A DNA stretch of 64,000 bases from Candidatus Rokuibacteriota bacterium (lineage in GTDB: Bacteria > Methylomirabilota > Methylomirabilia > Rokubacteriales > CSP1-6), in the NCBI GenBank assembly GCA_003220315.1, contig QHSA01000133.1:14843-78842 (forward strand), given 5' to 3'. The translations under genes and the position numbers were made by a program. Below the pieces are notes generated by a model. It was given only the letters and a program-made list of their open reading frames with translations. It searched no databases and was not told the origin of the DNA. Positions within the stretch are counted from its first letter, which is position 1. Every line of letters begins with the position of its first letter. Below, piece after piece: positions 2,148 to 56,220 of this stretch.

Positions 2148-3296
2148 TCAGTCGTCGAGCAGCTCCTTGGCGATGATCAGCCGCTGGATCTGGTTCGTCC
2201 CCTCGTAGATCTGCATGATCTTCGCGTCCCGCATGAAGCGCTCGACGGGGTACTCGCGTGTGTAGCCGTAGCCCCCGAAGACCTGGATGGCGTCGGTCGC
2301 GACCTTCATCGCGGCGTCGCCGGCCCAGCACTTCGCCATCGACGCCTCGTACGTGTTGCCTCGGATCCCCGCGTCCACCTGACGGGCGGCGTGGTGGACC
2401 ATGAGGCGCGCGGCGTGGACCTGCATCGCCATGTCGGCGAGCATGAACTGGATACCCTGAAAGGCTGCGACCGCCCGCCCGAACTGGTGTCGCTCCCGGG
2501 CGTACGCCACCGCGGCGTCGAGCGCCGCCTGCGCGATGCCGACGGCCATCGCGCCGGTCGCCGGGCGCGTGACGTCGAGGGTCTCCATGGCGATCGTGAA
2601 TCCCTCGCCCTCCTCGCCGAGGCGGTTCGCGACCGGTACGGCGCAGTCGGTGAAGTGGAGCGCCACGGTGGGCGAGGCTCGGATGCCCATCTTCTTCTCC
2701 TTCTTACCCACGGCGAAGCCGGGCATGCCTCGCTCGACGAGGAACGCGGTGACGCCCTTCGCGCGCAGCTTCGGGTCGATCGTGGCGAAGACGACGATGA
2801 CGTCGGCGTGGTCGCCGTTGGTGCACCACTGCTTGGAGCCGTTCAGGACGTAGCGGTCACCCCTCCGCACCGCGGTCGTCCGGAGGCCCGCCGCGTCCGA
2901 GCCGGCGCCGGGCTCCGAGAGCGAGTACGCGGCGAGGAGCTCGCCCGTCGCCAGGCGCGGCAGGTACTTCGTCTTCTGCGCTTCGGTGCCGAAGCGGAGG
3001 ATCGGGAGCCCGCCGAGCGGCTGGTCGAGGTACTGGGTCGCCGTCGCCGCGCACGCCCACGCGATCTCCTCGCACACGAGCGCGAGCGCGAGGCACCCCG
3101 CATCGGTCCCGCCGTACCGCTCGGGCACCCAGATCCCGTAGAGCCCCGCGTCGATGAGCGCTCGGATCGAGTCCTCGGGGTACTCCTCGGCGTCGTCGTA
3201 CCGGGCCGCGTGCGGCGCCACGCGCTCACGCGCGATCGTGCGCGCGAGGTCACGGATCAGCCGCTGGTCCTCGGTCAGGTAGAAGGCGTCGTTCAC
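2148..3296 (-). CDS. Acyl-CoA dehydrogenase
   Basis: ACAD motifs ([23 protein letters not shown], [12 protein letters not shown]). Start set at GTG 3296 ([11 protein letters not shown]) preceded by GAGGGGGA; the upstream ORF-track extension is spurious. Confidence 0.9.
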
Positions 3297-6511: not shown

Positions 6512-7267
6512 CTACACCCCGAGCCCCCCTCGACGGGCGCCGGCGTGCGCCGCCAACCCGAGGTAGGCGGCACGGACGCGCGGGTCCTCACCGAGCTCCT
6601 GGCTCGTCCCCGCGACGACGACGCGACCCGTCTCGAGCACGTAGCCGCGGCTCGCGAGCCGGAGCGCCCGGCGCGCGTTCTGCTCGACGAGCAGGACGGC
6701 CACGCCCGTCGCGTTGATCCGCTGGATGGTTCGGAAGATCTCGCGCGAGAGCATCGGCGCCAGGCCGAGCGAGGGCTCGTCGAGCAGGAGCAGGCGCGGC
6801 CGGGCCACGAGCGCCCGGGCGATCGCGAGCATCTGCTGCTCGCCGCCGGAGAGCGTGCCCGCGAGCTGGCGCCGCCGCTCGCGCAACACGGGGAAGAGCT
6901 CGAACGCGTCCTCGAGTCGCGCCGCCAGGTCGCGCCGGGGAACCGTATGGCCACCGACGAGCAGATTCTCGAGCACGGTGAACTCGACGAAGACGTCGCG
7001 CCCCTCCGGCACGTGCCCGACACCGGCCGCGACGATCCGGTCCGCGGGCTCACGCGTGATGTCGCGCCCCTCGTAGAGCACGCGGCCTTGCGCGGGCCTC
7101 ACCAGTCCCGAAATCGTTCTCAGCGTCGTGGACTTGCCACTGCCGTTCGCCCCGAGGAGCGCGACGATCTCGCCGCGGCCCACCGTGAGCGAGACGCCCT
7201 CCACCGCGCGGCGCTTGCCGTAGGACACCGCGAGGTCCTCGACCGCGAGCGTCGCCGGCATCCTCAT
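6512..7267 (-). CDS. livF: Branched-chain amino acid ABC transporter ATP-binding protein LivF
   Basis: Walker A GANGSGKST, signature LSGGEQQML, Walker B LLLLDEPS. Start ATG 7267 (MRMPATLAVEDL) preceded by GAGGCGAGCC and overlapped by the TGA of the R2 mini-ORF. Confidence 0.9.
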   Translation of the reverse strand: MRMPATLAVEDLAVSYGKRRAVEGVSLTVGRGEIVALLGANGSGKSTTLRTISGLVRPAQGRVLYEGRDITREPADRIVAAGVGHVPEGRDVFVEFTVLENLLVGGHTVPRRDLAARLEDAFELFPVLRERRRQLAGTLSGGEQQMLAIARALVARPRLLLLDEPSLGLAPMLSREIFRTIQRINATGVAVLLVEQNARRALRLASRGYVLETGRVVVAGTSQELGEDPRVRAAYLGLAAHAGARRGGLGV

Positions 7268-7391
7268 AGGCTCGCCTCGCACGGCGGGGCCGATTTGTAT
7301 CGCTCGCCTCGGGCCTGGGGGCCCCAGCCCCCGGTCGGCCCTGCGGCTCGCCCTGCGGCCCCGCGACGTGCTGCGGCTCGCACTGCCATCC
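7264..7391 (-). repeat. R2-family intergenic element forming a 41-codon mini-ORF between livG and livF
   Basis: ATG 7389 lies 2 nt after the livG stop (TGA 7392-7394). The mini-ORF MAVRAAARRG...PPCEASL ends with TGA 7264-7266 overlapping the livF ATG (ATGA). Shares CTGCGGCTCGCACTGCCATC and GGCGAGGCGAG blocks with 14117-14228 and 23602-23868. Confidence 0.7.
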
Positions 7392-8153
7392 TCAGTCGTC
7401 CTCGCGGCCCAGATAGGCCTCGACCACCGCCGGCTCGACGGCGATCGCGCGCGGCTGGCCCTCGGCGATCTTCCGCCCGTAGTTCAGCACGGCCACGCGG
7501 TCGGAGACGCCCATCACGAGCTCCATGTCGTGCTCGACGAGCAGGATCGTGAGCCCCCGCTCGTCCCGCAGCCGCACGATCAACCCCATGAGCGCCTGGG
7601 TCTCGGTGGGATTGAGGCCGCCGGCGGGCTCGTCGAGCAGCAGGAGCCTGGGCTCCGCGGCGAGCGCGCGCGCGAGCTCGAGGCGCTTCTGGAGCCCGAG
7701 CGGCAGGCTGCGCGCCTCGACGCCGGCCTGGCCCTCGAGCCCCAGGCGCGCCAGGAGCGCGCGCGCGGTCGCGCGCGCCGCGCCCTCCTCCCGAAGGACC
7801 GCGGGGAGCCCGAGCGCGCCGCGGAGCGCGCCCGCGCGGAGGTGGGCGTGGCAGCCGATCAGCACGTTGTCGAGCACGGTGAGCTGGCGAAAGACCTCGG
7901 TGTTCTGGAAGGTGCGCGCGATCCCGCACCGCGCGATCGCGTGCGGTCCCATGGCCAGGAGGTCACGGCCGAGGAAGGTGACGCGACCGGACGCGGGGCG
8001 TTCGAGGCCGGTCACGATGTTGAAGACCGTCGACTTCCCCGCCCCGTTGGGGCCGATCAGCGCCACGATCTCCCGCGCGGCGACCTCGACGGAGAAGCCA
8101 CTCAGCGCGGCGAGGCCGCCGAAGCTGATCGAGAGGTCCTCGACGCGGAGCAC
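7392..8153 (-). CDS. livG: Branched-chain amino acid ABC transporter ATP-binding protein LivG
   Basis: Walker A GPNGAGKST, LSLGLQKRLELARAL signature region, Walker B LLLLDEPAGG. Confidence 0.9.
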   Translation of the reverse strand: MLRVEDLSISFGGLAALSGFSVEVAAREIVALIGPNGAGKSTVFNIVTGLERPASGRVTFLGRDLLAMGPHAIARCGIARTFQNTEVFRQLTVLDNVLIGCHAHLRAGALRGALGLPAVLREEGAARATARALLARLGLEGQAGVEARSLPLGLQKRLELARALAAEPRLLLLDEPAGGLNPTETQALMGLIVRLRDERGLTILLVEHDMELVMGVSDRVAVLNYGRKIAEGQPRAIAVEPAVVEAYLGREDD

Positions 8154-8159
8154 CGCGCG

Positions 8160-9323
8160 CTACTCGGCCCTGAGCCAGTCGGTGAGCTGCTTGAAGCGGC
8201 CCCGCTCCACGCGCACCCAGAACCCCTGCCGCTGGGTCTCGTGGTCCGGGCCGATCGTGACCGGCGGCAGGATGCCGCTCTCGAATCCACGGATCCCCTC
8301 GAGCGCGACGACGAGTCCCTCGCGCGTGAGGCGGCGGCCCGCGCGCGTGGCGCCCTCCGTGAAGAGCATCGCCGCGAAGTAGCCCGAGAGGGAGTAGCGG
8401 TTGGGCTCGTTCTTCGGGAGGTACGTCTTTAAGTCATCGCGATATCGCTTGACGCCCGGCCGGTCCGAGGTCAGCGGGTCGGGCCAGAGCGACAGTCCCT
8501 CGACGCCCTCCGACGCGTCTCCCGCGAGCGCGAGGTAACGCTCGTCGGTGAGCGGGCCGGAGGAGACCATGACGACCTCGCTCCAGCCGATCTTCTGGCG
8601 CTCGCGGAGCGCCTGGGCGCCCGGGCCGGGCGTGAGGACGAGGAAGAGCACGTCGGGCCTGGCCGCCTGAAGCTTGGCCATCTGGGCGCTCACGTCGGTG
8701 ACGCCGCGCTTGACCGACTCCGTCGCCACCAGCTTGAGCCCGTGGCGCCCGAGGTCTTTCTCGAGGGCGGTGAGGAACGACTTGCCGTACTCGTCGTCCT
8801 GGTAGAGCGTCGCGAACTTCCCGAACTTCCGCGCGCCCACGAGGTAGTCGATCATCATGCGCGACTGCCGGTCGTAGAGCGTCATCCCGCTGAAGACCCA
8901 CTTCCGCCCGCGCGTGATCGGCGAGCCCTGGAACGGGAAGAGCAGCGGGACACGGTTCTCCTCGAGGTACTCGAGCGTCGCCACCACCGGCGGCGTGCCC
9001 TGCGGGGCGATGATCGCGAAGACTCCATCCTGCTCGAGGAGCTTCCGCGTGTTGGCGACCGCCTCCTGCGGCTTGTAGCCGTCGTCGTAGTACACCGTCC
9101 GCACCTTCCGGCCGTGGATGCCCCCGCCGTCGTTGACGGCCTTGAAGTAGAGGTCCACCCCGAACCTCGTCGCCTGCTCGCCCGTGAAGGCGAGCGGGCC
9201 CGAGAACGAGTTCGAGCCGCCGAGCAGGATCTCGGCGTCGGTCACGCCCTGCTGCGCCCGGGCGGGCAGCGGAGTGGCGCCCGTGGTGAGGCCCGCGATG
9301 ACGAGGGCCAGGAGGACTCGCAT
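8160..9323 (-). CDS. Branched-chain amino acid ABC transporter substrate-binding protein (paralog 1)
   Basis: 387 aa, signal peptide MRVLLALVIAGLTTGATPLPARA; about 75% identical to the next gene upstream. Confidence 0.9.
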   Translation of the reverse strand: MRVLLALVIAGLTTGATPLPARAQQGVTDAEILLGGSNSFSGPLAFTGEQATRFGVDLYFKAVNDGGGIHGRKVRTVYYDDGYKPQEAVANTRKLLEQDGVFAIIAPQGTPPVVATLEYLEENRVPLLFPFQGSPITRGRKWVFSGMTLYDRQSRMMIDYLVGARKFGKFATLYQDDEYGKSFLTALEKDLGRHGLKLVATESVKRGVTDVSAQMAKLQAARPDVLFLVLTPGPGAQALRERQKIGWSEVVMVSSGPLTDERYLALAGDASEGVEGLSLWPDPLTSDRPGVKRYRDDLKTYLPKNEPNRYSLSGYFAAMLFTEGATRAGRRLTREGLVVALEGIRGFESGILPPVTIGPDHETQRQGFWVRVERGRFKQLTDWLRAE

Positions 9324-9344
9324 ACGTCGTCTCCTTCTCGTCGG

Positions 9345-10505
9345 CTACTCCGACTTGAGCCAGTCGGTGAGCTGCTTGAAGCGGCCCCGCTCCACACGCA
9401 CCCAGACCGCCTGCTTTTGGGTCTCGTGGTCCGGGCCGATGGTGAGCGGCGGCAGGATCCCGCTCTCCCAGCGCTTGACGGACTGGAGGGCGGCGATCAA
9501 CGACTCGCGGGTCAGCCGGGCCCCCGCGCGCGTGGCGCCCTCCGCGAAGAGCATCGCGGCGAAGTAGCCCGCGAGGGAATACCGGTTGGGCTCGTTCCGC
9601 GGGAAGTAGTTCTGCATGTGCTCGCGGTAACGCCGCACGCCTGGCAGGTCCGAGGTGAGCGGGTCGGGCCAGAGCGACAGCCCCTCGACACCCTCGGCAG
9701 CGTCGCCGGCGAGCGAGAGATACCGCTCGTCGGTGAGCGGGCCGGTGGACACCATGAGCGTGTCGGTCCAGCCGATCTTCTGCCGCTCCCTGAGCGCCTG
9801 CGCGCCCGGGCCGGGTACGAGGACCAGGAAGGTCACCTCGGGCTTCGCGGTGTGGAGCTTGGCGATCTGGGCGCTCACGTCGGTGACGCCGCGCTTCACC
9901 GATTCGACCGCGAGCAGCCTGAGGCCGTGGCGCGCCAGGTCCTTCTCGAAGGCCGTGAGGAACGACTTGCCGTACTCGTCGTCCTGGTAAAGCGCGGCGA
10001 ACTTCCTGTACTTTCGCCGACCCACCAGATAGTCGATCATCATCCGTGACGAGCGGTCGCTCATCGTCATGCCCTGGAAGACCCAGTGCCGGCCGCGCGT
10101 GACGGTCGAGCTCTGGTACGGGAACAGGAGCGGGACACGGTTCTGCTCGAGGTACTCGAGCGTCGCCACGACCGGTGGGGCGCCCTGCGGGATGATGACC
10201 GCGAACACCTGGTCCTGCTCGACGAGCTTGCGTGTGTTTGCCACCGCGTCCTGCGGCTTGTAACCGTCGTCGTACCAGATCGTCCGCACCTTCCGGCCGT
10301 GGATGCCCCCGCCGTCGTTGACGGCCTTGAAGCCGAGATCCACCCCGAACTTCGTGATCTGCTCGCCCGTGAAGGCCAGCGGGCCCGAGAACGAGTTCGA
10401 GCCGCCGAGCAGGATCTCGGTGTCGGTGACGCCCTGCTCGGCGCGCGCCGGCGCCGCGACCATCACGACGAGGGCGAGCAGCGGAAGGAGCCATCCGGAT
10501 CTCAT
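9345..10505 (-). CDS. Branched-chain amino acid ABC transporter substrate-binding protein (paralog 2)
   Basis: Start ATG 10505 (MRSGWLLPLLALVVMVAAPARA), overlapped (ATGA) by the stop of the R1 mini-ORF; the ORF-track N-terminal extension is repeat-derived. Confidence 0.9.
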   Translation of the reverse strand: MRSGWLLPLLALVVMVAAPARAEQGVTDTEILLGGSNSFSGPLAFTGEQITKFGVDLGFKAVNDGGGIHGRKVRTIWYDDGYKPQDAVANTRKLVEQDQVFAVIIPQGAPPVVATLEYLEQNRVPLLFPYQSSTVTRGRHWVFQGMTMSDRSSRMMIDYLVGRRKYRKFAALYQDDEYGKSFLTAFEKDLARHGLRLLAVESVKRGVTDVSAQIAKLHTAKPEVTFLVLVPGPGAQALRERQKIGWTDTLMVSTGPLTDERYLSLAGDAAEGVEGLSLWPDPLTSDLPGVRRYREHMQNYFPRNEPNRYSLAGYFAAMLFAEGATRAGARLTRESLIAALQSVKRWESGILPPLTIGPDHETQKQAVWVRVERGRFKQLTDWLKSE

Positions 10506-10740
10506 GGTCGTTCTCCTTGTAGCGGGGTCCGCGAGCCCGGCGCCATCGGTGGGTGGCCTGAGACCAGGCGCGCCCCGGCTCCGGTCCCCCTGCCGCCGCT
10601 CATTCCAGTCCACGCCGCGAGCCCGGCGCCATCGGTGGGTGGCCTGAGACCAGGCGCGCCCCGGCTCCGGTCCCCCTGCCGCCGCTCATTCCAGTCCACG
10701 CCGCGAGCCCGGCGCCATCGGTGGGTGGCCTGCCCACCGT
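10502..10740 (-). repeat. R1-family tandem repeat (86-bp unit x ~2.35) forming chained mini-ORFs between livM and the SBP gene
   Basis: Units 10531-10616 and 10617-10702, plus a partial unit 10703-10732 that lies inside the livM 3' coding end. The livM TGA (10686-10688) overlaps ATG 10689 of a 28-codon mini-ORF (MSGGRGTGAGARLVSGHPPMAPGSRRGLE). Its TGA overlaps ATG 10603 of a 33-codon mini-ORF whose TGA (10502-10504) overlaps the SBP ATG 10505. Confidence 0.8.
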
Positions 10741-13014: not shown

Positions 13015-14120
13015 TGGATCGCCTTCCGCCACATCGGCGAGGCCCACCCGTCCCGGAGGAACGCAAGAATCTCGCGCCGGCTCAGGTCGCCGAGCCCCAG
13101 GTGCTCGAGCGCGCGGCCGCGGCCCGAGAGCTCGCGCCCGAGCAGCGCGCCGTACACGAGAAGGAGCCCCGTGATCGCGGGCGTCACCGCGCCCGCCGCC
13201 CGCGCGGCCGACTCGAGGAGCGCCAACCCGAGAACCGCGTCCTCGGTGACGTAGCGGTGCTCGAACGTGACGATCTCGCTCCAGAGGCCGCTCGCCACGA
13301 GTTTCGTCTTCGCCCCGGCGCCGTAGAGCCCCTCGGCCGCCCGCGTCTCGTCGTAGTACGTCGCGAGCTCGTAGTGGGGCGCCGCGTAGCCCCAGCCCCG
13401 GCGAGTCGCGACCCGCTCGGCGTCCACGGCGTCGATGAGCCGGCGCACGCTCGGCGTCGTGCCAGCCGCGTGGACGTCGAAGCTGCCACCGTCGATCGCG
13501 CCGGTATTCAGGAGAACGAGCGGGGGGTGGATCACGGGCCCGGCGTTGGTGAGCGCGACATCGAGGGAGTCCGCGCACGGGCGGACGGCCGGGAAGAGCT
13601 CGGCGAGCCGCGGCAAGACGCGCGGGCCCCGCGACGCGGGAAACACGCCGATCGGCAGGTTGGCGGCGCGCAGGGGCGCCTTGACGACCGCGGGCGCCGT
13701 CTTCCGCGTGAGATAGGGCAGCGTCCCGGTCTCGGCGAGGGCGAGCGGTAAGGGGCCGCCGGCGCGCGCAATCCCCCGCGCCATCGCGTAGCTACCGAGC
13801 GTTCCCGGTGTGAGCAGGATGATCTGTCGGTCGTTGAGACACGGCGCCAGGCGCTTGGCGAGCTCCTCGTGGCTCGTCGCGGGTAGCGGGACGATCAGGA
13901 CCTCCGCGCCCTCGACCGCCTCGCCGAGGTCGGTCGTGGCGCGCTCGAGCTGCGCCGTCCCGTGCCGCCCCTCGGCGTCGAGCGTGATCGTCGCGCGCTC
14001 CACGAGCGGGCCGAGCGCGTCCGCCGAGCGGCTCCAGAGCCTGACGCGGTGGCCGGCCAGCGCGAGATCGGCCGCCGTCGCGAAGCCACCATTGCCCGCG
14101 CCCAGGACTGCTAGCTTCAC
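13011..14120 (-). CDS. NAD/NADP-dependent octopine/nopaline (opine) dehydrogenase family oxidoreductase
   Basis: GTG 14120 gives MKLAVLGAGNGGFATAADLALAGHRV, a classic Rossmann N-terminus of the opine dehydrogenase family. The GTG is overlapped by the TGA of the R2 mini-ORF. Confidence 0.7.
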   Translation of the reverse strand: MKLAVLGAGNGGFATAADLALAGHRVRLWSRSADALGPLVERATITLDAEGRHGTAQLERATTDLGEAVEGAEVLIVPLPATSHEELAKRLAPCLNDRQIILLTPGTLGSYAMARGIARAGGPLPLALAETGTLPYLTRKTAPAVVKAPLRAANLPIGVFPASRGPRVLPRLAELFPAVRPCADSLDVALTNAGPVIHPPLVLLNTGAIDGGSFDVHAAGTTPSVRRLIDAVDAERVATRRGWGYAAPHYELATYYDETRAAEGLYGAGAKTKLVASGLWSEIVTFEHRYVTEDAVLGLALLESAARAAGAVTPAITGLLLVYGALLGRELSGRGRALEHLGLGDLSRREILAFLRDGWASPMWRKAIQ

Positions 14121-14228
14121 AGACTCGCCTCGCCTGTGGCTGCGGCTCGCACTGCCACGACGTTCATAAGCTCGCCTCGCACGGCGGGGCCCCAGCCCCA
14201 CGACGTGCTGCGGCTCGCACTGCCATCA
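14117..14228 (-). repeat. R2-family element forming two chained mini-ORFs (20 and 16 codons)
   Basis: The CoA-transferase TGA (14226-14228) overlaps ATG 14226 (TGATG). Mini-ORF1 MAVRAAARRGAGAPPCEASL ends with TGA 14164-14166 overlapping ATG 14167 of mini-ORF2 MNVVAVRAAATGEASL. Its TGA 14117-14119 overlaps the GTG 14120 of the next gene. Confidence 0.7.
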
Positions 14229-20378: not shown

Positions 20379-20652
20379 TGTAGCGAAGTCCGCGAGGCCG
20401 GCGCCATCGGTGGGTGGCCTGAGACCAGGCGCGACCCGGCTCCGGTCCCCATGTCGTGTCTCATTCCAACAGGGTCCGCGAGGCCGGCGCCAGCGGTGGG
20501 TGGCCGTCGGACTGACCGCCCTTCGAGCGCGGGCTTCGCCCGCGCAACCGATCCTGGGGGAGGCTCGGAGGGGGCCGTCGAGGCCCCCTTCGATGAGGTG
20601 GGTGGCCTGAGACCAGGCGCGACCCGGCTCCGGTCGTCCCGGCGCTATTCAT
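20375..20652 (-). repeat. R1-family element (two units, the distal one interrupted by a nested R3 element) forming 63- and 29-codon chained mini-ORFs
   Basis: ATG 20652 lies 2 codons before the metallophosphoesterase TAG (ATGAATAG). Mini-ORF1 reads through R1-partial, R3 and R1 to TGA 20461-20463, which overlaps ATG 20464 of mini-ORF2 (MRHDMGTGAGSRLVSGHPPMAPASRTSLQ). Its TGA 20375-20377 overlaps GTG 20378 of the B12 subunit. Confidence 0.75.
20496..20607. mobile_element. R3 MITE-like element (92 bp) with 10-bp direct target duplication GTGGGTGGCC, nested in R1
   Basis: Insert 20506-20597 flanked by GTGGGTGGCC at 20496-20505 and 20598-20607. Two internal hairpins (GCGCGGGC-TTC-GCCCGCGC; GGGGGCC-GTCGA-GGCCCCC). 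A near-identical copy (3 differences) sits at the same position of a diverged R1 at 27445-27556. Confidence 0.7.
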
Positions 20653-21124
20653 TCGGGAGCTCGAGGATGCGGCCCCGCACGCGCCCATCCTCGACGGTGA
20701 GTCGTCCCACTGCCACGGGAAGCTTGAAGCGGCGGGGGCCGGCGCTTCCCGGATTGAAAAACAGCACGCCGTCCCGCTCCTCCTGCCGCGGCTGGTGACT
20801 GTGGCCGGAAATGACCACGCCGAACCCCGCCGCGCGCGGGTCAAGGCCCAGCGCCGTCACGTCGTGCAGCACGTACAGGAGCACGCCCCCGATCTCGAGA
20901 ACCTGAGTGGACGGAACCTTCTCGGCCCACGCGCCGCGATCATTGTTGCCACGAACGGCCGTCACCGGCGCGATCGCGCCGAGTCGCTCCAGCACGTCCG
21001 GCGTGCCGATGTCCCCGGCGTGGACGATCGCATCGACGCCCCGGAGCGCCACGACCGCCTCGGGCCTCAACCGTCCGTGAGTGTCGGAGATAACGCCCAC
21101 CGATCGCACGCGCGAGCCGCTCAT
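20645..21124 (-). CDS. Metallophosphoesterase (YfcE/MJ0936 family)
   Basis: 159 aa from ATG 21124 (ATGA overlap with upstream DUF35 gene); GVISDTHG ... GDIG ... GNND ... GHSH motifs. Confidence 0.8.
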   Translation of the reverse strand: MSGSRVRSVGVISDTHGRLRPEAVVALRGVDAIVHAGDIGTPDVLERLGAIAPVTAVRGNNDRGAWAEKVPSTQVLEIGGVLLYVLHDVTALGLDPRAAGFGVVISGHSHQPRQEERDGVLFFNPGSAGPRRFKLPVAVGRLTVEDGRVRGRILELPNE

Positions 21125-22645: not shown

Positions 22646-23604
22646 TGGTACGCAGCGTCCTCTCGCACCCGCCTGAGCTGCCGGAGCAGCGCACGGACCT
22701 TGGCGGTCTCGAACGTCTCGCGCCGGTCGCCGGCGTAGTCGAAGAACCCGCGCCCCGTCTTCGGGCCGAGCTCTCGCCTCGCGATCTTCTCCTCGACCAG
22801 GCGCGCCGGCTTGAAGCGGTCGTCACCGAGCGCGTCGGCGAGGAAGCGGCTCGCACGGTGGAGGATGTCCACGCCGCCCCAGTCGATGAACTCGAAGATC
22901 CCGACCTGCGCGTAACGGAAGCCCATCCCCGCCCTGAACGCCCGGTCCACGTCCTCGGGCGACGCGACGCCCTCCTCGACGAGGCGGACCGCCTCGTTCA
23001 TGAGCAACGCCTGTAGCCGCGGCCCGATGAACCCCGGCGAGTCGGCGCACCGCACGGGGACCTTCCCGAGCGCCTCGAGGACCTCGATGGCGCGGTCGAC
23101 GACGGCGGCCGTGGTCGCCTGGCCGGCGACGACCTCCACGAGCGGGACGATGTGGGCGGGGTTGAGCCAGTGCGCGACGAGGAAGCGCTCCGGACGCTCT
23201 ACCGCGTCGGCGAGGTGCCTGGGCGCGATCGTCGAGCTCGTCGAGGCGATGATCGCCCCGGCGCCGACGCGGGTCGAGAGGCGCCCCAGCACCTCGCGCT
23301 TGAGGTCGAGCAGCTCCGGCAGCGCCTCCTGCACGAAAGCGCACGCGTCGAGGCCGTCGAGCCCCGTGCGGTCCTCGATCCGGTCGAGCGCCGACGCGAC
23401 GTCGCCGCCCGCGATCACACCCTCCTCGGTCATGAGCCGGAGGTCGCGGGTGATCTCGCGCCGCGCGTCGGCGAAGACGGCGCGCCGCTCCTCGGGCGTG
23501 CGGGCCTTGACGTCGACGAGGAGGACACGGCGCCCGCCCAAGGCGAAGGCGAGCGCGATCTGGCGCCCGATCCTCCCGGGGCCGAGAACCGCGACTGTAT
23601 TCAT
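22642..23604 (-). CDS. 3-hydroxyacyl-CoA dehydrogenase (NAD-binding, HBD/FadB-type)
   Basis: MNTVAVLGPGRIGRQIALAFALGG Rossmann N-terminus; C-terminal 3HCDH dimerisation domain; ATG 23604 is the last start of the R2 tandem array. Confidence 0.9.
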   Translation of the reverse strand: MNTVAVLGPGRIGRQIALAFALGGRRVLLVDVKARTPEERRAVFADARREITRDLRLMTEEGVIAGGDVASALDRIEDRTGLDGLDACAFVQEALPELLDLKREVLGRLSTRVGAGAIIASTSSTIAPRHLADAVERPERFLVAHWLNPAHIVPLVEVVAGQATTAAVVDRAIEVLEALGKVPVRCADSPGFIGPRLQALLMNEAVRLVEEGVASPEDVDRAFRAGMGFRYAQVGIFEFIDWGGVDILHRASRFLADALGDDRFKPARLVEEKIARRELGPKTGRGFFDYAGDRRETFETAKVRALLRQLRRVREDAAYQ

Positions 23605-23868
23605 AGACTCGCCTCGCCGGCGGCTGCGGCTCGTACGACCACGTTCATAGACTCGCCTCGCCGGCGGCTGCGGCTCGTACGACCACGCTCATAGACTCGC
23701 CTCGCCGACGGCTGCGGCTCGTACGACCACGTTCATAGACTCGCCTCGCCGACGGCTGCGGCTCGTACGACCACGTTCATAGACTCGCCTCGCCGGCGGC
23801 TGCGGCTCGTACGACCACGTTCATAGACTCGCCTCGCCGACGGCTGCGGCTCGTACGACCACGTTCAC
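23602..23868 (-). repeat. R2-family 44-bp tandem array (6 ATG units plus 1 GTG unit), each unit a 15-codon mini-ORF
   Basis: Unit CATAGACTCGCCTCGCCG(G/A)CGGCTGCGGCTCGTACGACCACG(T/C)T at 44-bp period, with start codons at 23604, 23648, 23692, 23736, 23780, 23824 (ATG) and 23868 (GTG). On the minus strand each unit reads (M/V)NVVVRAAA(A/V)GEASL-TGA, with the TGA overlapping the next ATG (ATGA). The thiolase TGA (23865-23867) overlaps the first GTG; the last TGA overlaps the dehydrogenase ATG. Confidence 0.85.
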
Positions 23869-27344: not shown

Positions 27345-27625
27345 TGTAACGGGGGCCGCGGGGCCGCCACACTCCGTGGGTGGCCTGAGACAAGGCGCGA
27401 CCCGGTTCCGTTCCGTAACGGGGGCCGCGGGGCCGCCACACTCCGTGGGTGGCCGTCGGACCGACCGCCCTTCGAGCGCGGGCTTCGCCCGCGCCACCGA
27501 TCCTGGGGGAGGCTCGGAGGGGGCCGTCGAGGCCCCCTTCGATGAGGTGGGGGGCCTGAGACGAGGTGCGACCCGGGCCCGTTCGGCACGCCGCCGCGTT
27601 TCATTCCACCGGGCGCGGCACTCAT
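27341..27625 (-). repeat. R1-family element (two units, the distal one carrying a nested R3) forming a 94-codon mini-ORF
   Basis: ATG 27625 overlaps the hyuB TGA (ATGA); the ORF reads through R1, R3 and R1 (…HLVSGPPPHRRGPRRPPPSLPQDRWRGRSPRSKGG…RLVSGHP…) to TGA 27341-27343, which overlaps the ACAD ATG 27344. Confidence 0.75.
27445..27556. mobile_element. R3 MITE-like element (92 bp) with 10-bp target duplication (GTGGGTGGCC / GTGGGGGGCC), nested in R1
   Basis: Insert 27455-27546; differs from the 20506-20597 copy at 3 positions, whereas the flanking R1 sequences differ extensively. Confidence 0.7.
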
Positions 27626-29427: not shown

Positions 29428-31487
29428 TCCAACTCCACCAGGAGACTCGCGTACTCGTCCACAGCCGCCGAGGCGCCGGGCGGAAGGACGGTCGTGGACT
29501 CGCGCTCCTCCACGATCGCCGGCCCCGTGAGGCGCGCCCCTGCCGCGAGCGCGTAGCGGTCGTAGACCGGCGTGTCCACGTAGCCGCGCGCCTCGGGAAA
29601 GTAGGCGCGACGGCTCCCCTTCACCGCGCGGCCACGGTCCTCGGTCTGCGCCTTCGCGAGCGCGATGCGGGGCGAGCCGCCGACCGCCGAGAGCTTCCAC
29701 GTGACGACCTCCACGGGCTCGCGCGGGTTCGCATAGCCGTAGCGGGCGGCGTAGACCTCGTCGAACGTCGCGCGCACCCGGGCGAGCGCGGCGGCGTCGA
29801 GCTCGCCCGACGGCACGGGAACGGTCAGCTCGTACCCCTGGCCCACGTAGCGCGCGTCGGCCGAGCGCGCCACGTGGATCTCACCGGCGACGGCGGACTC
29901 GCGGACGACCTCCGTCGCCTGCCGCGCCATCTCCGCGTACATCCGACCGAGCTGCGCGAGATCCACGGCGTCGAGCCGGCGGACGTAAGTGCGCGCCACG
30001 TCGAACCGGAGCTCCGCGGCCAGCAGGCCGATCGCGGCCGTGACCCCGGCGGCCGCGGGGAGAATCACGCGCGGGATGCCGAGCGCCTGGGCGAGTCGGC
30101 AGCCGTGCACGGGGCCCGAGCCGCCGAAGGCGACGAACGTGAGGTCGCGCGGGTCGCGGCCGCGCTCGATCGAGACCACGCGGGTCGCCAGCTCCATGTT
30201 GGTGGTGACGATCGCGTGGATCCCCCACGCCGCGTCCTCGAGCGACAGGCCGAGCGGCGCCGCGACCTTCGTCTCGATCGCCCGCGTCGCCGCCGCCGGC
30301 TCGAGCTTGACCGAGCCGCCCGCGAAGTAGTCGGGGTTGATATAGCCGAGCACCACGTTCGCGTCGGTGACCGTGGGCTCGACACCACCGCGCCCGTAGC
30401 AGACGGGCCCCGGCACCGACGAGGCGCTCTCCGGGCCCACGGCGATCACGCCGAGCCGCGCGCGGGCGATCGAGCCGCCGCCCGCACCGATCTCGACGAG
30501 GTCGATCGCCTGAATGTTCATCGGCAGGCCGCTGCCCGGGGCGTTGTTGACGCGGTGGAGCTCGAACGCCGTCGTCGTGGAGGGCCGCCCGCGCTCGACG
30601 AGTGCGAGCTTGGCGGTCGTGCCCCCCATGTCGAACGCGATCAGGTCGCGGTGGCCGGTGAGCTCGCCGTACGCCGCCGCCATCAGGGCGCCCGCGGCGG
30701 GACCCGACTCGATCATCCGCACGGGGTAGCGCTGCATCGCCTCCGCCGTCGCGACGCCGCCGGAGGACTGCATGACGAAGAGCCGGCCCCGGTAGCCGCG
30801 CTCGGCCAGGGCGGCGGCGAGCCCGCGCAGGTACTCGCGCACGGCCGTCATCACGTAAGCGTTGACCACGGTCGTCGAGGTCCGCTCGTATTCGCGGAAG
30901 GTCGGCGACACCTCGTGCGACATCGTCACCGTCACGTGCGGAGCCTCTTCTCCGACGATCTCCGCCAGGCGCCGCTCGTGGAGGGGGTTCAGGTACGCGT
31001 GCAGGAGGCAGATCGCGAGGGTCGTGACCTCGCGCGCGACGAGCTCGCGGACGGCCCGACGGGCGTCGGCCTCGTCGAGCGGGCTCCGCACCGAGCCGTC
31101 CGCCAGGACGCGCTCGGTCACCTCGCCGATCAACCGGCGAGGGATCAGCGGCGCGGGCTTCTCGATCTGGAGGTCGTAGACCTGGTAGCGCTTCTCGCGC
31201 CCGATCAGGAGCACGTCGCGGAAGCCCCGCGTGGTGAGGAGCCCGACGCCTCGCGCCTTGCGCTCGATGACGACATTGGAGCCGAGTGTCGTCCCGTGGA
31301 CCGCCTGGGCCACGTCGCGCCACGTGACACCGCTCCGGGCGACGAGCTCGTCGAGCCCCGCGAGGCAGGCCTCGGAGGGGTCCGGGTAGGTCGTCAGCCG
31401 CTTCGCGATGAGGAGCTCCCCCGACGGCGACTGCAGCACCAAGTCGGTGAACGTCCCCCCGACGTCGAACCCGATCCGGTAGGGCAT
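29424..31487 (-). CDS. hyuA: Hydantoinase A / 5-oxoprolinase subunit (HyuA family)
   Basis: 687 aa; MPYRIGFDVGGTFTD N-terminus; ATG 31487 overlaps the TAA of the R1 mini-ORF (TAATG). Confidence 0.9.
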   Translation of the reverse strand: MPYRIGFDVGGTFTDLVLQSPSGELLIAKRLTTYPDPSEACLAGLDELVARSGVTWRDVAQAVHGTTLGSNVVIERKARGVGLLTTRGFRDVLLIGREKRYQVYDLQIEKPAPLIPRRLIGEVTERVLADGSVRSPLDEADARRAVRELVAREVTTLAICLLHAYLNPLHERRLAEIVGEEAPHVTVTMSHEVSPTFREYERTSTTVVNAYVMTAVREYLRGLAAALAERGYRGRLFVMQSSGGVATAEAMQRYPVRMIESGPAAGALMAAAYGELTGHRDLIAFDMGGTTAKLALVERGRPSTTTAFELHRVNNAPGSGLPMNIQAIDLVEIGAGGGSIARARLGVIAVGPESASSVPGPVCYGRGGVEPTVTDANVVLGYINPDYFAGGSVKLEPAAATRAIETKVAAPLGLSLEDAAWGIHAIVTTNMELATRVVSIERGRDPRDLTFVAFGGSGPVHGCRLAQALGIPRVILPAAAGVTAAIGLLAAELRFDVARTYVRRLDAVDLAQLGRMYAEMARQATEVVRESAVAGEIHVARSADARYVGQGYELTVPVPSGELDAAALARVRATFDEVYAARYGYANPREPVEVVTWKLSAVGGSPRIALAKAQTEDRGRAVKGSRRAYFPEARGYVDTPVYDRYALAAGARLTGPAIVEERESTTVLPPGASAAVDEYASLLVELE

Positions 31488-31567
31488 TATTGGTGGCCTG
31501 AGACGAGGTGCGCCCCGGCTCCGTTCCGCCCGCCGCTTCCCATTCCAGCGAGCCGCAAGGCCGGCAT
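31487..31567 (-). repeat. Single R1 unit forming a 26-codon mini-ORF between the GntR gene and hyuA
   Basis: ATG 31567 lies 1 nt after the GntR TAG (31569-31571); MPALRLAGMGSGGRNGAGAHLVSGHQ-TAA, with the TAA overlapping the hyuA ATG. Confidence 0.65.
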
Positions 31568-33051: not shown

Positions 33052-34200
33052 CTAGGCGCGCACCAGCTCGCGCGCGATCACGACCCGCTGGATCTGGTTC
33101 GTGCCCTCGTAGATCTGCGTGATCTTGGCGTCGCGCATGAAGCGCTCGACGGGATACTCGCGCGTGTAGCCGTAGCCGCCGAAGATCTGCACGGCGTCCG
33201 TCGTGACCCGCATCGCCGCGTCGCCCGCGAAGCACTTGGCCATCGACGACTCGAACGCCGTGCGGGGAGCGCCGCGGTCCAGGAGCGCTGCGGCGTGGTG
33301 GACCATGAGGCGCGCCCCGTGCGTCTGCATCGCCATGTCCGCGAGCATGAACTGAATCCCCTGGAAGGCCGCGATCGGCTGGCCGAACTGCTGCCGCTCT
33401 TTGGCGTAGGCGACGGCGGCGTCGAGCGCGGCCTGGGCGATCCCCACGGCCTGGGCGCCCACGGCCGGGCGCGAGCCGTCCAGGACGCGCAGCGCGATCC
33501 TGAACCCCTCGCCCTCGTCGCCGAGACGGTTCTCGACGGGCACCTCGCAGTCGCTCAGATGGAGCGCAACCGTCGGGGACCCGCGAATCCCCAGCTTGCG
33601 CTCGAGCTTGCCGAGGGCGAACCCGGGGAACGTCGGCTCGACCAGGAACGCGGTGACCCCGCGGTGGCCCTTGCCGCGGTCCACGGTGGCGAAGAGGGTG
33701 ATGACGCCGGCGTGACTGCCGTTCGTGACCCACATCTTGGTCCCGTTGAGAAGGTAGCGGTCGCCCCGGCGCACGGCGGTCGTCGTGAGCGCGCCGGCGT
33801 CGGACCCGGCGCCAGGCTCCGAGAGGGAGAACGCCGCGGTGATCTCGCCCGCAGCGAGCCGCGGCAGGTAGCGCCGCTTCTGCGCCTCGCTGCCTGCCGT
33901 GACGATCGGGAACCCGCCGGTGTACTGGACGAGATAGATGACGGCGGTGGACGCACACGCCCAGGCAATCTCCTCGACCGCCAGGCAGAAGGCGAGCGCG
34001 CCGAGCCCGGCGCCGCCGTAGGCCTCGGGGATGTAGAGCCCCATGAGCCCCTGCTCGCCGAGTGACGTGAGCTGGTCGGTCGGATACGTCTCCGTCTCGT
34101 CCACCTGCGCGGCGAGTGGCGCGACCCGTTCGCGGGCGAGAGCCCGGACGAGGTCGCGCACCTGGCGCTGCTCGGCGGTCAGATCGAAGAGGTCGCGCAT
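33052..34200 (-). CDS. Acyl-CoA dehydrogenase
   Basis: Start ATG 34200 ([14 protein letters not shown]); about 65% identical to the ACAD at 2148-3296. Confidence 0.9.
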
Positions 34201-38597: not shown

Positions 38598-38690
38598 TGC
38601 GTCGGAATCACCGCTGTTCGAGCGCCGGCTCCGCCGGCGCAACCGATCCGGGGGGAGGCATCGGAAGGGGGGCGAAGCCCCCCTCCGAGT
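38598..38690. repeat. R3-like hairpin element at convergent gene ends (probable bidirectional terminator)
   Basis: GTCGGAATCACCGCTGTTCGAGCGCCGGCTCCGCCGGCGCAACCGATCCGGGGGGAGGCATCGGAAGGGGGGCGAAGCCCCCCTCCGAG; same architecture as R3, with compensatory stem changes (GCGCCGGC/GCCGGCGC versus GCGCGGGC/GCCCGCGC). Confidence 0.6.
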
Positions 38691-56090: not shown

Positions 56091-56220
56091 GTCGGAGAAA
56101 GGGCTGTCGACCGGGGTTCGAGCGCCGGCTTTGCCGGCGCACCGATTCCTCGGGGGTTCGCTCCCTCTCGGGAGCGCTCCCCCGGCCTCGGAGGGGGCCG
56201 TCGCGCCCTTAGGGCGCGCC
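56091..56220. repeat. R3-like hairpin element (extended variant)
   Basis: GTCGGAGAAAGGGCTGTCGACCGGGGTTCGAGCGCCGGCTTTGCCGGCGCACCGATTCC...CTCGGAGGGGGCCGTCGCGCCCTTAGGGCGCGCC; shares the TTCGAGCGCCGGC-loop-GCCGGCGC-ACCGAT core and GGAGGGGGCC hairpin with other R3 copies. Lies in frame with the downstream gene, giving a spurious N-terminal extension. Confidence 0.55.

Follow-up and report, generated by a model that had tools for sequence, protein, structure and literature searches.

We found that the 41-codon mini-ORF filling the junction between two co-directional ABC-transporter ATPase genes, livG and livF, of a Candidatus Rokuibacteriota bacterium is probably a compound unit of an intercistronic repeat that is dispersed in Rokubacteria (Methylomirabilota) and can amplify in tandem, and which appears to be MIRU-like and translationally transparent and so would preserve the coupling of the genes that it separates. 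The repeat family inserts at stop/start junctions of co-directional genes, where it amplifies in tandem and nests while retaining an uninterrupted relay of ORFs. The DNA analyzed, called the window here, is a stretch of 64,000 nucleotides with a GC content of 71-73%, and the unit at the livG/livF junction is referred to as copy A.

The mini-ORF of copy A was re-read on the minus strand and runs, as the original prediction had it, for 41 codons from ATG 7389 to TGA 7266-7264, ending inside CTATGAGGATG and separated by GG (2 nt) from the livG stop codon TGA 7394-7392. Its translation from ATG 7389 to TGA 7264 is MAVRAAARRGAAGRAAGPTGGWGPQARGERYKSAPPCEASL followed by the stop. On the minus strand the junction begins GAC GAC TGA GG ATG GCA GTG CGA GCC GCA GCA CGT CGC GGG GCC and ends CCG CCG TGC GAG GCG AGC CTA TGA GG ATG CCG GCG. 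The upstream gene (7392-8153, minus strand) encodes a livG-like ABC ATPase with the Pfam domains ABC_tran and BCA_ABC_TP_C, and the ORF downstream of copy A is a LivF-type ATPase by Pfam. The features of the junction, all on the minus strand, are as follows.

7392 to 7394, minus strand: stop codon TGA of the livG-like ABC ATPase gene (7392-8153)
7387 to 7394, minus strand: left copy of the 8-nt direct repeat TGAGGATG, made of the livG stop, GG and the start now used by the mini-ORF
7264 to 7389, minus strand: 41-codon mini-ORF plus stop, the compound repeat copy A
7358 to 7389, minus strand: 5' half of the outer B-type unit, up to the 5' arm of the hairpin, ATGGCAGTGCGAGCCGCAGCACGTCGCGGGGC (nhmmer 7386-7358; un-nested unit at the same locus in L136)
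7288 to 7357, minus strand: nested inner family copy, 70 nt, with its own hairpin GGGGGC-TGGG-GCCCCC (nhmmer 7356-7298; fold)
7264 to 7287, minus strand: 3' half of the outer B-type unit, CCGCCGTGCGAGGCGAGCCTATGA, including the terminal TGA (nhmmer 7291-7264)
7259 to 7266, minus strand: right copy of TGAGGATG, made of the mini-ORF stop, GG and the native livF start ATG 7261-7259
6512 to 7261, minus strand: livF-like ABC ATPase gene from its native start

Copy A consists of a hairpin-bearing unit of 63 nt whose loop holds a second family copy, also of 63 nt; the inner copy (70 nt) stands in place of the 7-nt loop region TGGGGCC, a net gain of 63 nt. The center of the ORF had been described as a 25-codon insertion that arose by internal duplication, and both parts of this description had to be replaced: the net insertion is 21 codons (63 nt), and nhmmer resolves the unit into three family matches (7386-7358, 7356-7298 and 7291-7264), the middle one being a nested family copy. 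When both translations were compared, the first nine codons (MAVRAAARR) and the last seven (PPCEASL) were indeed common to the ORF at 14164-14226, and the proposed repeat origin of the mini-ORF was borne out by family units at three window junctions and at the loci of our scans. The minimum-free-energy fold of copy A is a nested hairpin (-71.5 kcal/mol, z = -1.9). The same 5'-5'-3'-3' nesting was seen at L094, L095, L107 and L209, and the compound layout, a B-type unit with a short-type copy in its loop, occurs at more than 15 independent loci among the matches listed. In the 3' half of copy A, a Shine-Dalgarno-like GAGG (7278-7275) stands 7 nt ahead of ATG 7267. A promoter and terminator scan of 7000-7700 revealed no sense-strand terminator or promoter consensus. 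The single terminator-like site in that scan lies at window positions 7274-7290 on the plus strand, antisense to the liv operon; its hairpin with a T-rich tail is made by the outer 3' half of copy A and the AT-rich ATACAAATCG of the nested copy, and it could be an antisense transcription stop or a coincidence.

The livG/livF site is empty in a related Rokuibacteriota MAG, where it reads GACGAC-TGA-GG-ATG-CCG (GACGACTGAGGATGCCGGCG; L212-L214) and, over a longer span, GACGACTGAGG followed by ATGCCGGCG and ...GAGGACGACTGAGG followed by ATGCCGGCGACG. This is exactly the window sequence less one 128-nt period. The species concerned (MAG AR20) shares 89% LivF identity and the synteny of the window, and has a 7-unit array elsewhere. 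Because the empty site reads TGA-GG-ATG-CCG, the native livF start is ATG 7261. The insertion of copy A is bordered by the duplicated TGAGGATG, and comparison of the filled and empty sites shows that the mini-ORF start is the former livF start codon and the mini-ORF stop a copy of the livG stop. The TGA-GG-ATG geometry is restored before livF, with the native start 2 nt past the mini-ORF stop, and ATG 7267 with its ATGA overlap is a product of the element end CTA and the duplicated TGA. The overlap of the mini-ORF stop with a livF ATG at 7267, as first proposed, is present as ATGA, but it is probably not the functional junction, given the native start that the empty site defines. The spacing of the mini-ORF is +2 to livG and, to livF, either -4 (ATG 7267) or +2 (native ATG 7261).

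Three alleles of the livG/livF junction were found among contigs encoding identical LivG. Allele a1 is of the window type (126 nt, one ORF). Allele a2 has 104 nt, 22 nt fewer than a1, and in it a GTGA joins an ORF of 23 codons to one of 11; its nested element is of the short type with its own TCTGTGA. Allele a3 consists of a simple un-nested 63-nt B-type unit, GG, and then the 104-nt a2 unit. The ORF chain is unbroken in all three, and the unit borders fall between TGAGG and ATG.

The 64-kb window holds nine units of the family at three operon junctions, all on the sense strand between co-directional genes. The 5' core GGCAGTGCGAGCCGCAGC has 10 matches in the window against 0.6 expected and the 3' end GGCGAGGCGAGYCTRTGA has 9 against 0.8 expected, all on the minus strand. 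The copies other than copy A are listed here.

14164 to 14226, minus strand: copy B, a simple hairpin-bearing 63-nt unit with a 20-codon ORF, at the junction of a CoA-transferase gene and an octopine-DH-like gene
14117 to 14167, minus strand: copy C, a short-type unit of 51 nt with a 16-codon ORF
23601 to 23868, minus strand: array D, six exact 44-nt short-type units from the thiolase stop to the 3HCDH start (ATG 23604)

Copy B (14164-14226; translation MAVRAAARRGAGAPPCEASL and stop) overlaps the CoA-transferase stop in TGATG and copy C in ATGA, and the GTGA at the end of copy C contains the start codon (GTG 14120) of the octopine-DH-like gene. Array D lies at the thiolase/3-hydroxyacyl-CoA dehydrogenase (3HCDH) junction, and each of its units is a 15-codon ORF, MNVVVRAAAxGEASL followed by a stop, joined to the next by ATGA. 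At all three window junctions the first unit has its start codon overlapping or adjoining the upstream stop (as GTGA, TGATG or TGA-GG-ATG), ATGA links each unit to the next, and the final stop overlaps a downstream start. Units end in GAGG, 7 nt, and then (A/G)TGA, an arrangement that, as read from the sequence, is Shine-Dalgarno-like.

The thiolase/3HCDH junction also varies. Contigs encoding identical thiolase carry 1, 2, 3, 4, 6 or 7 units of the 44-nt array, as counted in short-read assemblies, which can collapse arrays. In two relatives (L218 and L219) the junction is empty and shows a plain GTGA overlap, and a more distant relative (L220) has an independent B-type-like insertion there, with the chain intact through TGATG and ATGA overlaps. 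The direct repeats that flank insertions measure 4-8 nt and include the stop codon, unlike a fixed target-site duplication. In a one-unit allele (L121), compared with window positions 23866-23868, the last thiolase codon is changed synonymously from GCG to GCA, and this change turns the first mini-ORF start from GTG (GTGA) into ATG (ATGA).

The distribution of the family was determined with a pattern scan of one genome per species, which gave at least 120 loci. About 35 of those listed come from Candidatus Rokubacteria/Rokuibacteriota/Methylomirabilota MAGs, and in these, among the matches listed, the half-cores are spaced by 5 nt (43 cases), 6 nt (4) or 26 nt (6). The other 85 or so, from Streptomyces and other phyla, had scattered half-core gap lengths and were set aside as chance matches. 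A metagenome scan for long and compound variants yielded 73 further loci in 61 distinct flank contexts. Among the matches listed, Candidatus Rokubacteria/Methylomirabilota MAGs and soil metagenomes together contain the family at about 100 distinct loci. A BLAST search of the window against the genome-scan loci (at least 120) returned no long match, indicating that the window's own genome is absent from those loci; the LivF homologues closest to that of the window are named Rokuibacteriota by their sources. In the 98 distinct arrays from MAGs and metagenomes, among the matches listed, the downstream gene is in the sense orientation in 66 and antisense in 3, and both flanking genes are sense in 42. 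The 26-nt core is nearly invariant across species, and this near-identity beyond neutrality hints at an additional sequence-specific function or a putative mobilising enzyme. One large subfamily has no mini-ORF; its 5' end supplies a TAG stop (gGTAGgGCGAGCC) and its 3' end GAGG-ATG. A second conserved motif, (G)TCCCGAGCGGAGCGAGG, was noticed downstream of the core and ATG at L035, L019, L027, L077, L088, L115, L009 and L066, which suggests further composite subfamilies. A literature search returned nothing relevant on repeats in Rokubacteria or on MIRU-like elements elsewhere.

Other repeats were observed in the window. An unrelated 86-nt tandem repeat at 10502-10732, minus strand, has the same -4 chain design. 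The gene upstream has its stop codon (TGA 10688-10686) in an ATGA, and two mini-ORFs, one of 29 codons (10689-10600) and one of 33 (10603-10502), share an ATGA joint (period 86 = 90 - 4). A periplasmic-binding-protein gene comes next; its ATG 10505 overlaps the last stop of the chain, and its AAGGAG Shine-Dalgarno sequence is contained in the mini-ORF. Related copies lie near 20390-20475, 20578-20663, 27356-27441 and 31469-31554. Copies of a third dispersed family of about 89 nt with small GC hairpins (e.g. GAGCGCGGGCTTCGCCCGCGC), at 20505-20593, 27454-27542, 38600-38688 and 56110-56155, adjoin copies of the 86-nt family. There are also diverged long direct repeats (74-90% identity): the pair 8159-8597 and 9344-9782 represents two tandem periplasmic-binding-protein genes of the liv cluster, found in L129 as well, and the pair 2160-3073 and 33064-33977 represents paralogous genes 30.9 kb apart.

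In the B-type unit (63 nt), the two half-sites of the short core are separated by a hairpin, GCGGGGC-TGGG-GCCCCGC, with an extension by CACG/CGTG. In an alignment of 18 distinct B-type sequences, 98.9% of cells were paired, vs. 33-49% when the partners were slid. Two base pairs covary (GC/CG at 12:6, and CG/UA/GC/UG), and every one-sided change gives G-U, which assigns the hairpin to the sense strand. The B-type hairpin is conserved on that strand and is under selection; its role is probably in element propagation, mRNA processing or mRNA stability. Short-type units are unstructured (z about 0) and have no palindrome.

These properties raise the question of whether the element is mainly an RNA-level host regulatory module, in which the hairpin and the bipartite core set mRNA stability, processing or downstream translation efficiency, or bind a protein or sRNA, and the ORF is a tolerated by-product. 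The pairing statistics (98.9% vs. 33-49%), the covariation and the one-sided changes confined to G-U are what such a module would show, as are the orientation to the downstream gene (66:3), the position of the core 5-8 nt upstream of start codons, also in subfamilies without a mini-ORF, and the near invariance of the 26-nt core between species. However, it is the unstructured short-type units (z about 0) that make the longest arrays, copy number ranges from 1 to 7 among near-identical strains, unlike a tuned regulator, and orthologous junctions work without the element. Rfam gave no match at the gathering score over the whole window and none at E<=1 in 7150-7500. A regulatory role would also leave unexplained why start/stop motifs and unit periods of 2 mod 3 occur specifically at coupled junctions. 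We consider it unlikely that regulation is the main function of the element.

To follow the relay of ORFs, we traced chains from the upstream stop to the downstream start, allowing only -4, -1 or 0 to +3 spacings. A tight chain over the 124-nt spacer of copy A arose in about 3-4% of shuffles with both ends fixed, and copy A taken alone is only mildly significant (chance about 0.03-0.04). A complete chain was present in 19 of the 27 loci with a shuffle null, vs. 4.3 expected, and, after three trivial loci were removed from these 27, a tight chain was present in 16 of the 24 informative co-directional loci, vs. 1.8 expected (P about 8e-15); in both counts some loci are related, which reduces the effective sample. 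Chance does not account for the pattern across the family. It had to be considered that the open frame and the overlaps are merely what a 72% GC sequence with rare stop codons produces, since with fixed ends 3-17% of the shuffles at a locus produce a tight chain and long spurious ORFs are plentiful in the window. Such an origin is very improbable in view of the 16 chains in 24 loci, the chain kept in three alleles and in an independent insertion at another junction, and the second, unrelated family with a like architecture.

Tandem unit periods are 2 mod 3 where start and stop codons sit at the unit borders (44, 41, 65, 68 and also 86 nt), because the units are joined by -4 or -1 overlaps. The 44-nt and 65-nt subfamilies use ATGA or GTGA joints, the 41-nt period of L019 reads the core in another frame, and L139 and L152 combine a 68-nt period with TAATG. 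L035, L037 and L143 have 3n periods with in-frame ATGs. Of two orthologous loci, L202 has a gap of 61 with two ORFs and L176 a gap of 62 with a single one; both have the same terminal ATGA, and the 1-nt indel between them swaps a two-ORF for a one-ORF solution. L188 has a gap of 59 and a single ORF. Arrays in non-operonic, non-coupled intergenic DNA have no start/stop motifs at their unit borders, for example CTTACGACC in L174 and the 62-63 nt periods in L146, L164 and L183. About a third of the co-directional loci do not have a complete chain; exceptions include L003, where 45-nt units read through, and L048, L098 and L194, which are without a start near the upstream stop.

These results change how length variation in the element should be understood. 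The original prediction held that variants keep the frame and both overlaps, with a length of 3n. The alleles and the family statistics support an unbroken path from stop to start, but the frame itself is not invariant, and the 3n rule fails: the 104-nt a2 allele with its GTGA stop/restart and the 44-, 41-, 65-, 68- and 86-nt periods break it and keep the chain. Loci without a complete chain do exist, in the third of co-directional loci just mentioned; 16 of the 24 informative loci keep the chain.

The subfamilies together use three reading frames of one core, and the variable sites inside the units are non-synonymous, which shows that conservation does not lie in the peptide. That the mini-ORF is a functional micropeptide (MAVRAAARR...PPCEASL) is scarcely credible: although copies A and B agree in N- and C-terminal residues and a Shine-Dalgarno-like GAGG stands ahead of the unit start codons, the different frames in which subfamilies read the core led us to reject a functional peptide, alleles of one locus encode unlike peptides (41 aa vs. 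23 + 11 aa), the variation is non-synonymous, the ORF is absent in a related species, and gene callers do not call it.

We therefore return to the reading of copy A as a translationally transparent repeat that preserves coupling. With start and stop codons of its own, a unit would be able to lie between two genes of an operon and leave the ribosome relay intact. Based on termination-reinitiation coupling and Rho polarity (PMC12548453), we propose that a ribosome terminating on the upstream gene would re-initiate on the mini-ORF of the unit, translate it, terminate at the unit end and re-initiate on the next unit or on the downstream gene. Insertion, tandem expansion and nested derivatives would in this manner leave the cistrons coupled, and the inserted RNA would stay translated, leaving no long untranslated Rho-accessible stretch in the operon. 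The peptide would have no function, and selection would act on the uninterrupted ORF relay. A broader model, which is tentative and rather doubtful, is that Rokubacteria harbor a guild of such repeats, with at least two unrelated families whose ends carry stop/start overlaps and an RBS, which colonise operon junctions, amplify and nest there. In this model copy number might serve the host as a mutable stoichiometry dial, since every relay step loses some ribosomes, and the core and hairpin might be the recognition site of a putative mobilising or RNA-binding protein.

Until now MIRUs have been regarded as a peculiarity of mycobacteria (PMC12548453). A seemingly unrelated family with the architecture of MIRU in an uncultured soil phylum, together with a second one in the same window, suggests that bacterial repeats have converged on a general strategy, that of colonising operon junctions with a coupled mini-ORF of their own. 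The arrays are prone to mis-annotation, as wrong start codons (here that of livF) or as spurious small genes. They are also hypervariable sites usable for strain typing in metagenomes, and natural test cases for the number of termination-reinitiation steps that a ribosome can relay. Notable by-products of the analysis are the allelic series found in nature, the reading of the core in all three frames, and the second unrelated family of like design.

Among known systems, the REP/BIME/REPIN sequences (RAYT, TnpA-REP) are similar in being short, GC-rich extragenic repeats within operons, and the B-type units fold as an imperfect palindrome whose hairpin is likewise kept by compensatory changes. 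The GTAG tetranucleotide is a hallmark of REPs; many Rokubacteria copies at the scan loci begin with it (gGTAGtGCGAGCC), whereas the window copies have GCAG or CGTA. The Rokubacteria arrays differ in being direct and head-to-tail rather than inverted doublets or alternating, with copies on both strands at only 3 of 104 loci among the matches listed, in having a short type without a palindrome, and in carrying start and stop codons in their units. An approximate RayT query gave no phmmer match in the 6144 ORFs of the scanned loci, which are not complete genomes. At the both-strand loci L147 and L173 there were ordinary-sized genes and no transposase-sized ORF between the inverted repeats.

Neisseria REP2 (PMC3184786) differs in that it carries a promoter too and sits upstream of transcription units; it does not link cistrons through chains of overlapping stops and starts, and lacks tandem amplification of this kind. 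Rickettsia palindromic elements and the enterobacterial RU/ERIC-type MITEs (PMC3184786, PMC2759123) are also mobile short repeats that keep the frame open and are tolerated in translated regions; unlike the Rokubacteria units, which are separate mini-cistrons between genes, they join a host protein. A MITE was rejected as an identity for the family itself, as its ends (…GCAGTGCGAGCC / GGCGAGCCTATGA) are not inverted repeats and the direct repeats at its flanks have no fixed length (4-8 nt).

The closest likeness is to the MIRUs. According to PMC12548453, which cites Supply et al. 1997, MIRUs insert at start codons and the ORF in a MIRU is coupled at -4; PMC3184786 describes them as polycistronic repeats of 40-100 bp whose ORFs overlap neighbouring genes and which are flanked by tetranucleotide direct repeats. 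The Rokubacteria family likewise forms 40-130 nt units in operon spacers, in direct head-to-tail arrays with strain-to-strain copy-number variation. Its internal ORF overlaps the flanking genes by start and stop with -4 spacing, filled sites show a short direct repeat and relatives have empty sites, and its proposed role would be the same, that of keeping translational coupling. It differs in belonging to another phylum, with a seemingly unrelated consensus; homology to the mycobacterial MIRU is not expected in a Rokubacteria-like host. Further differences are a long subtype with a covarying hairpin, the nesting of copies in one another's hairpin loop, the use of all three frames and of both -4 and -1 overlaps, one subfamily without any ORF, and flanking direct repeats of 4-8 nt instead of a fixed tetranucleotide. 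Taken together, these comparisons indicate that the family would fall within a MIRU-like class in both function and architecture and would require no new mechanism.
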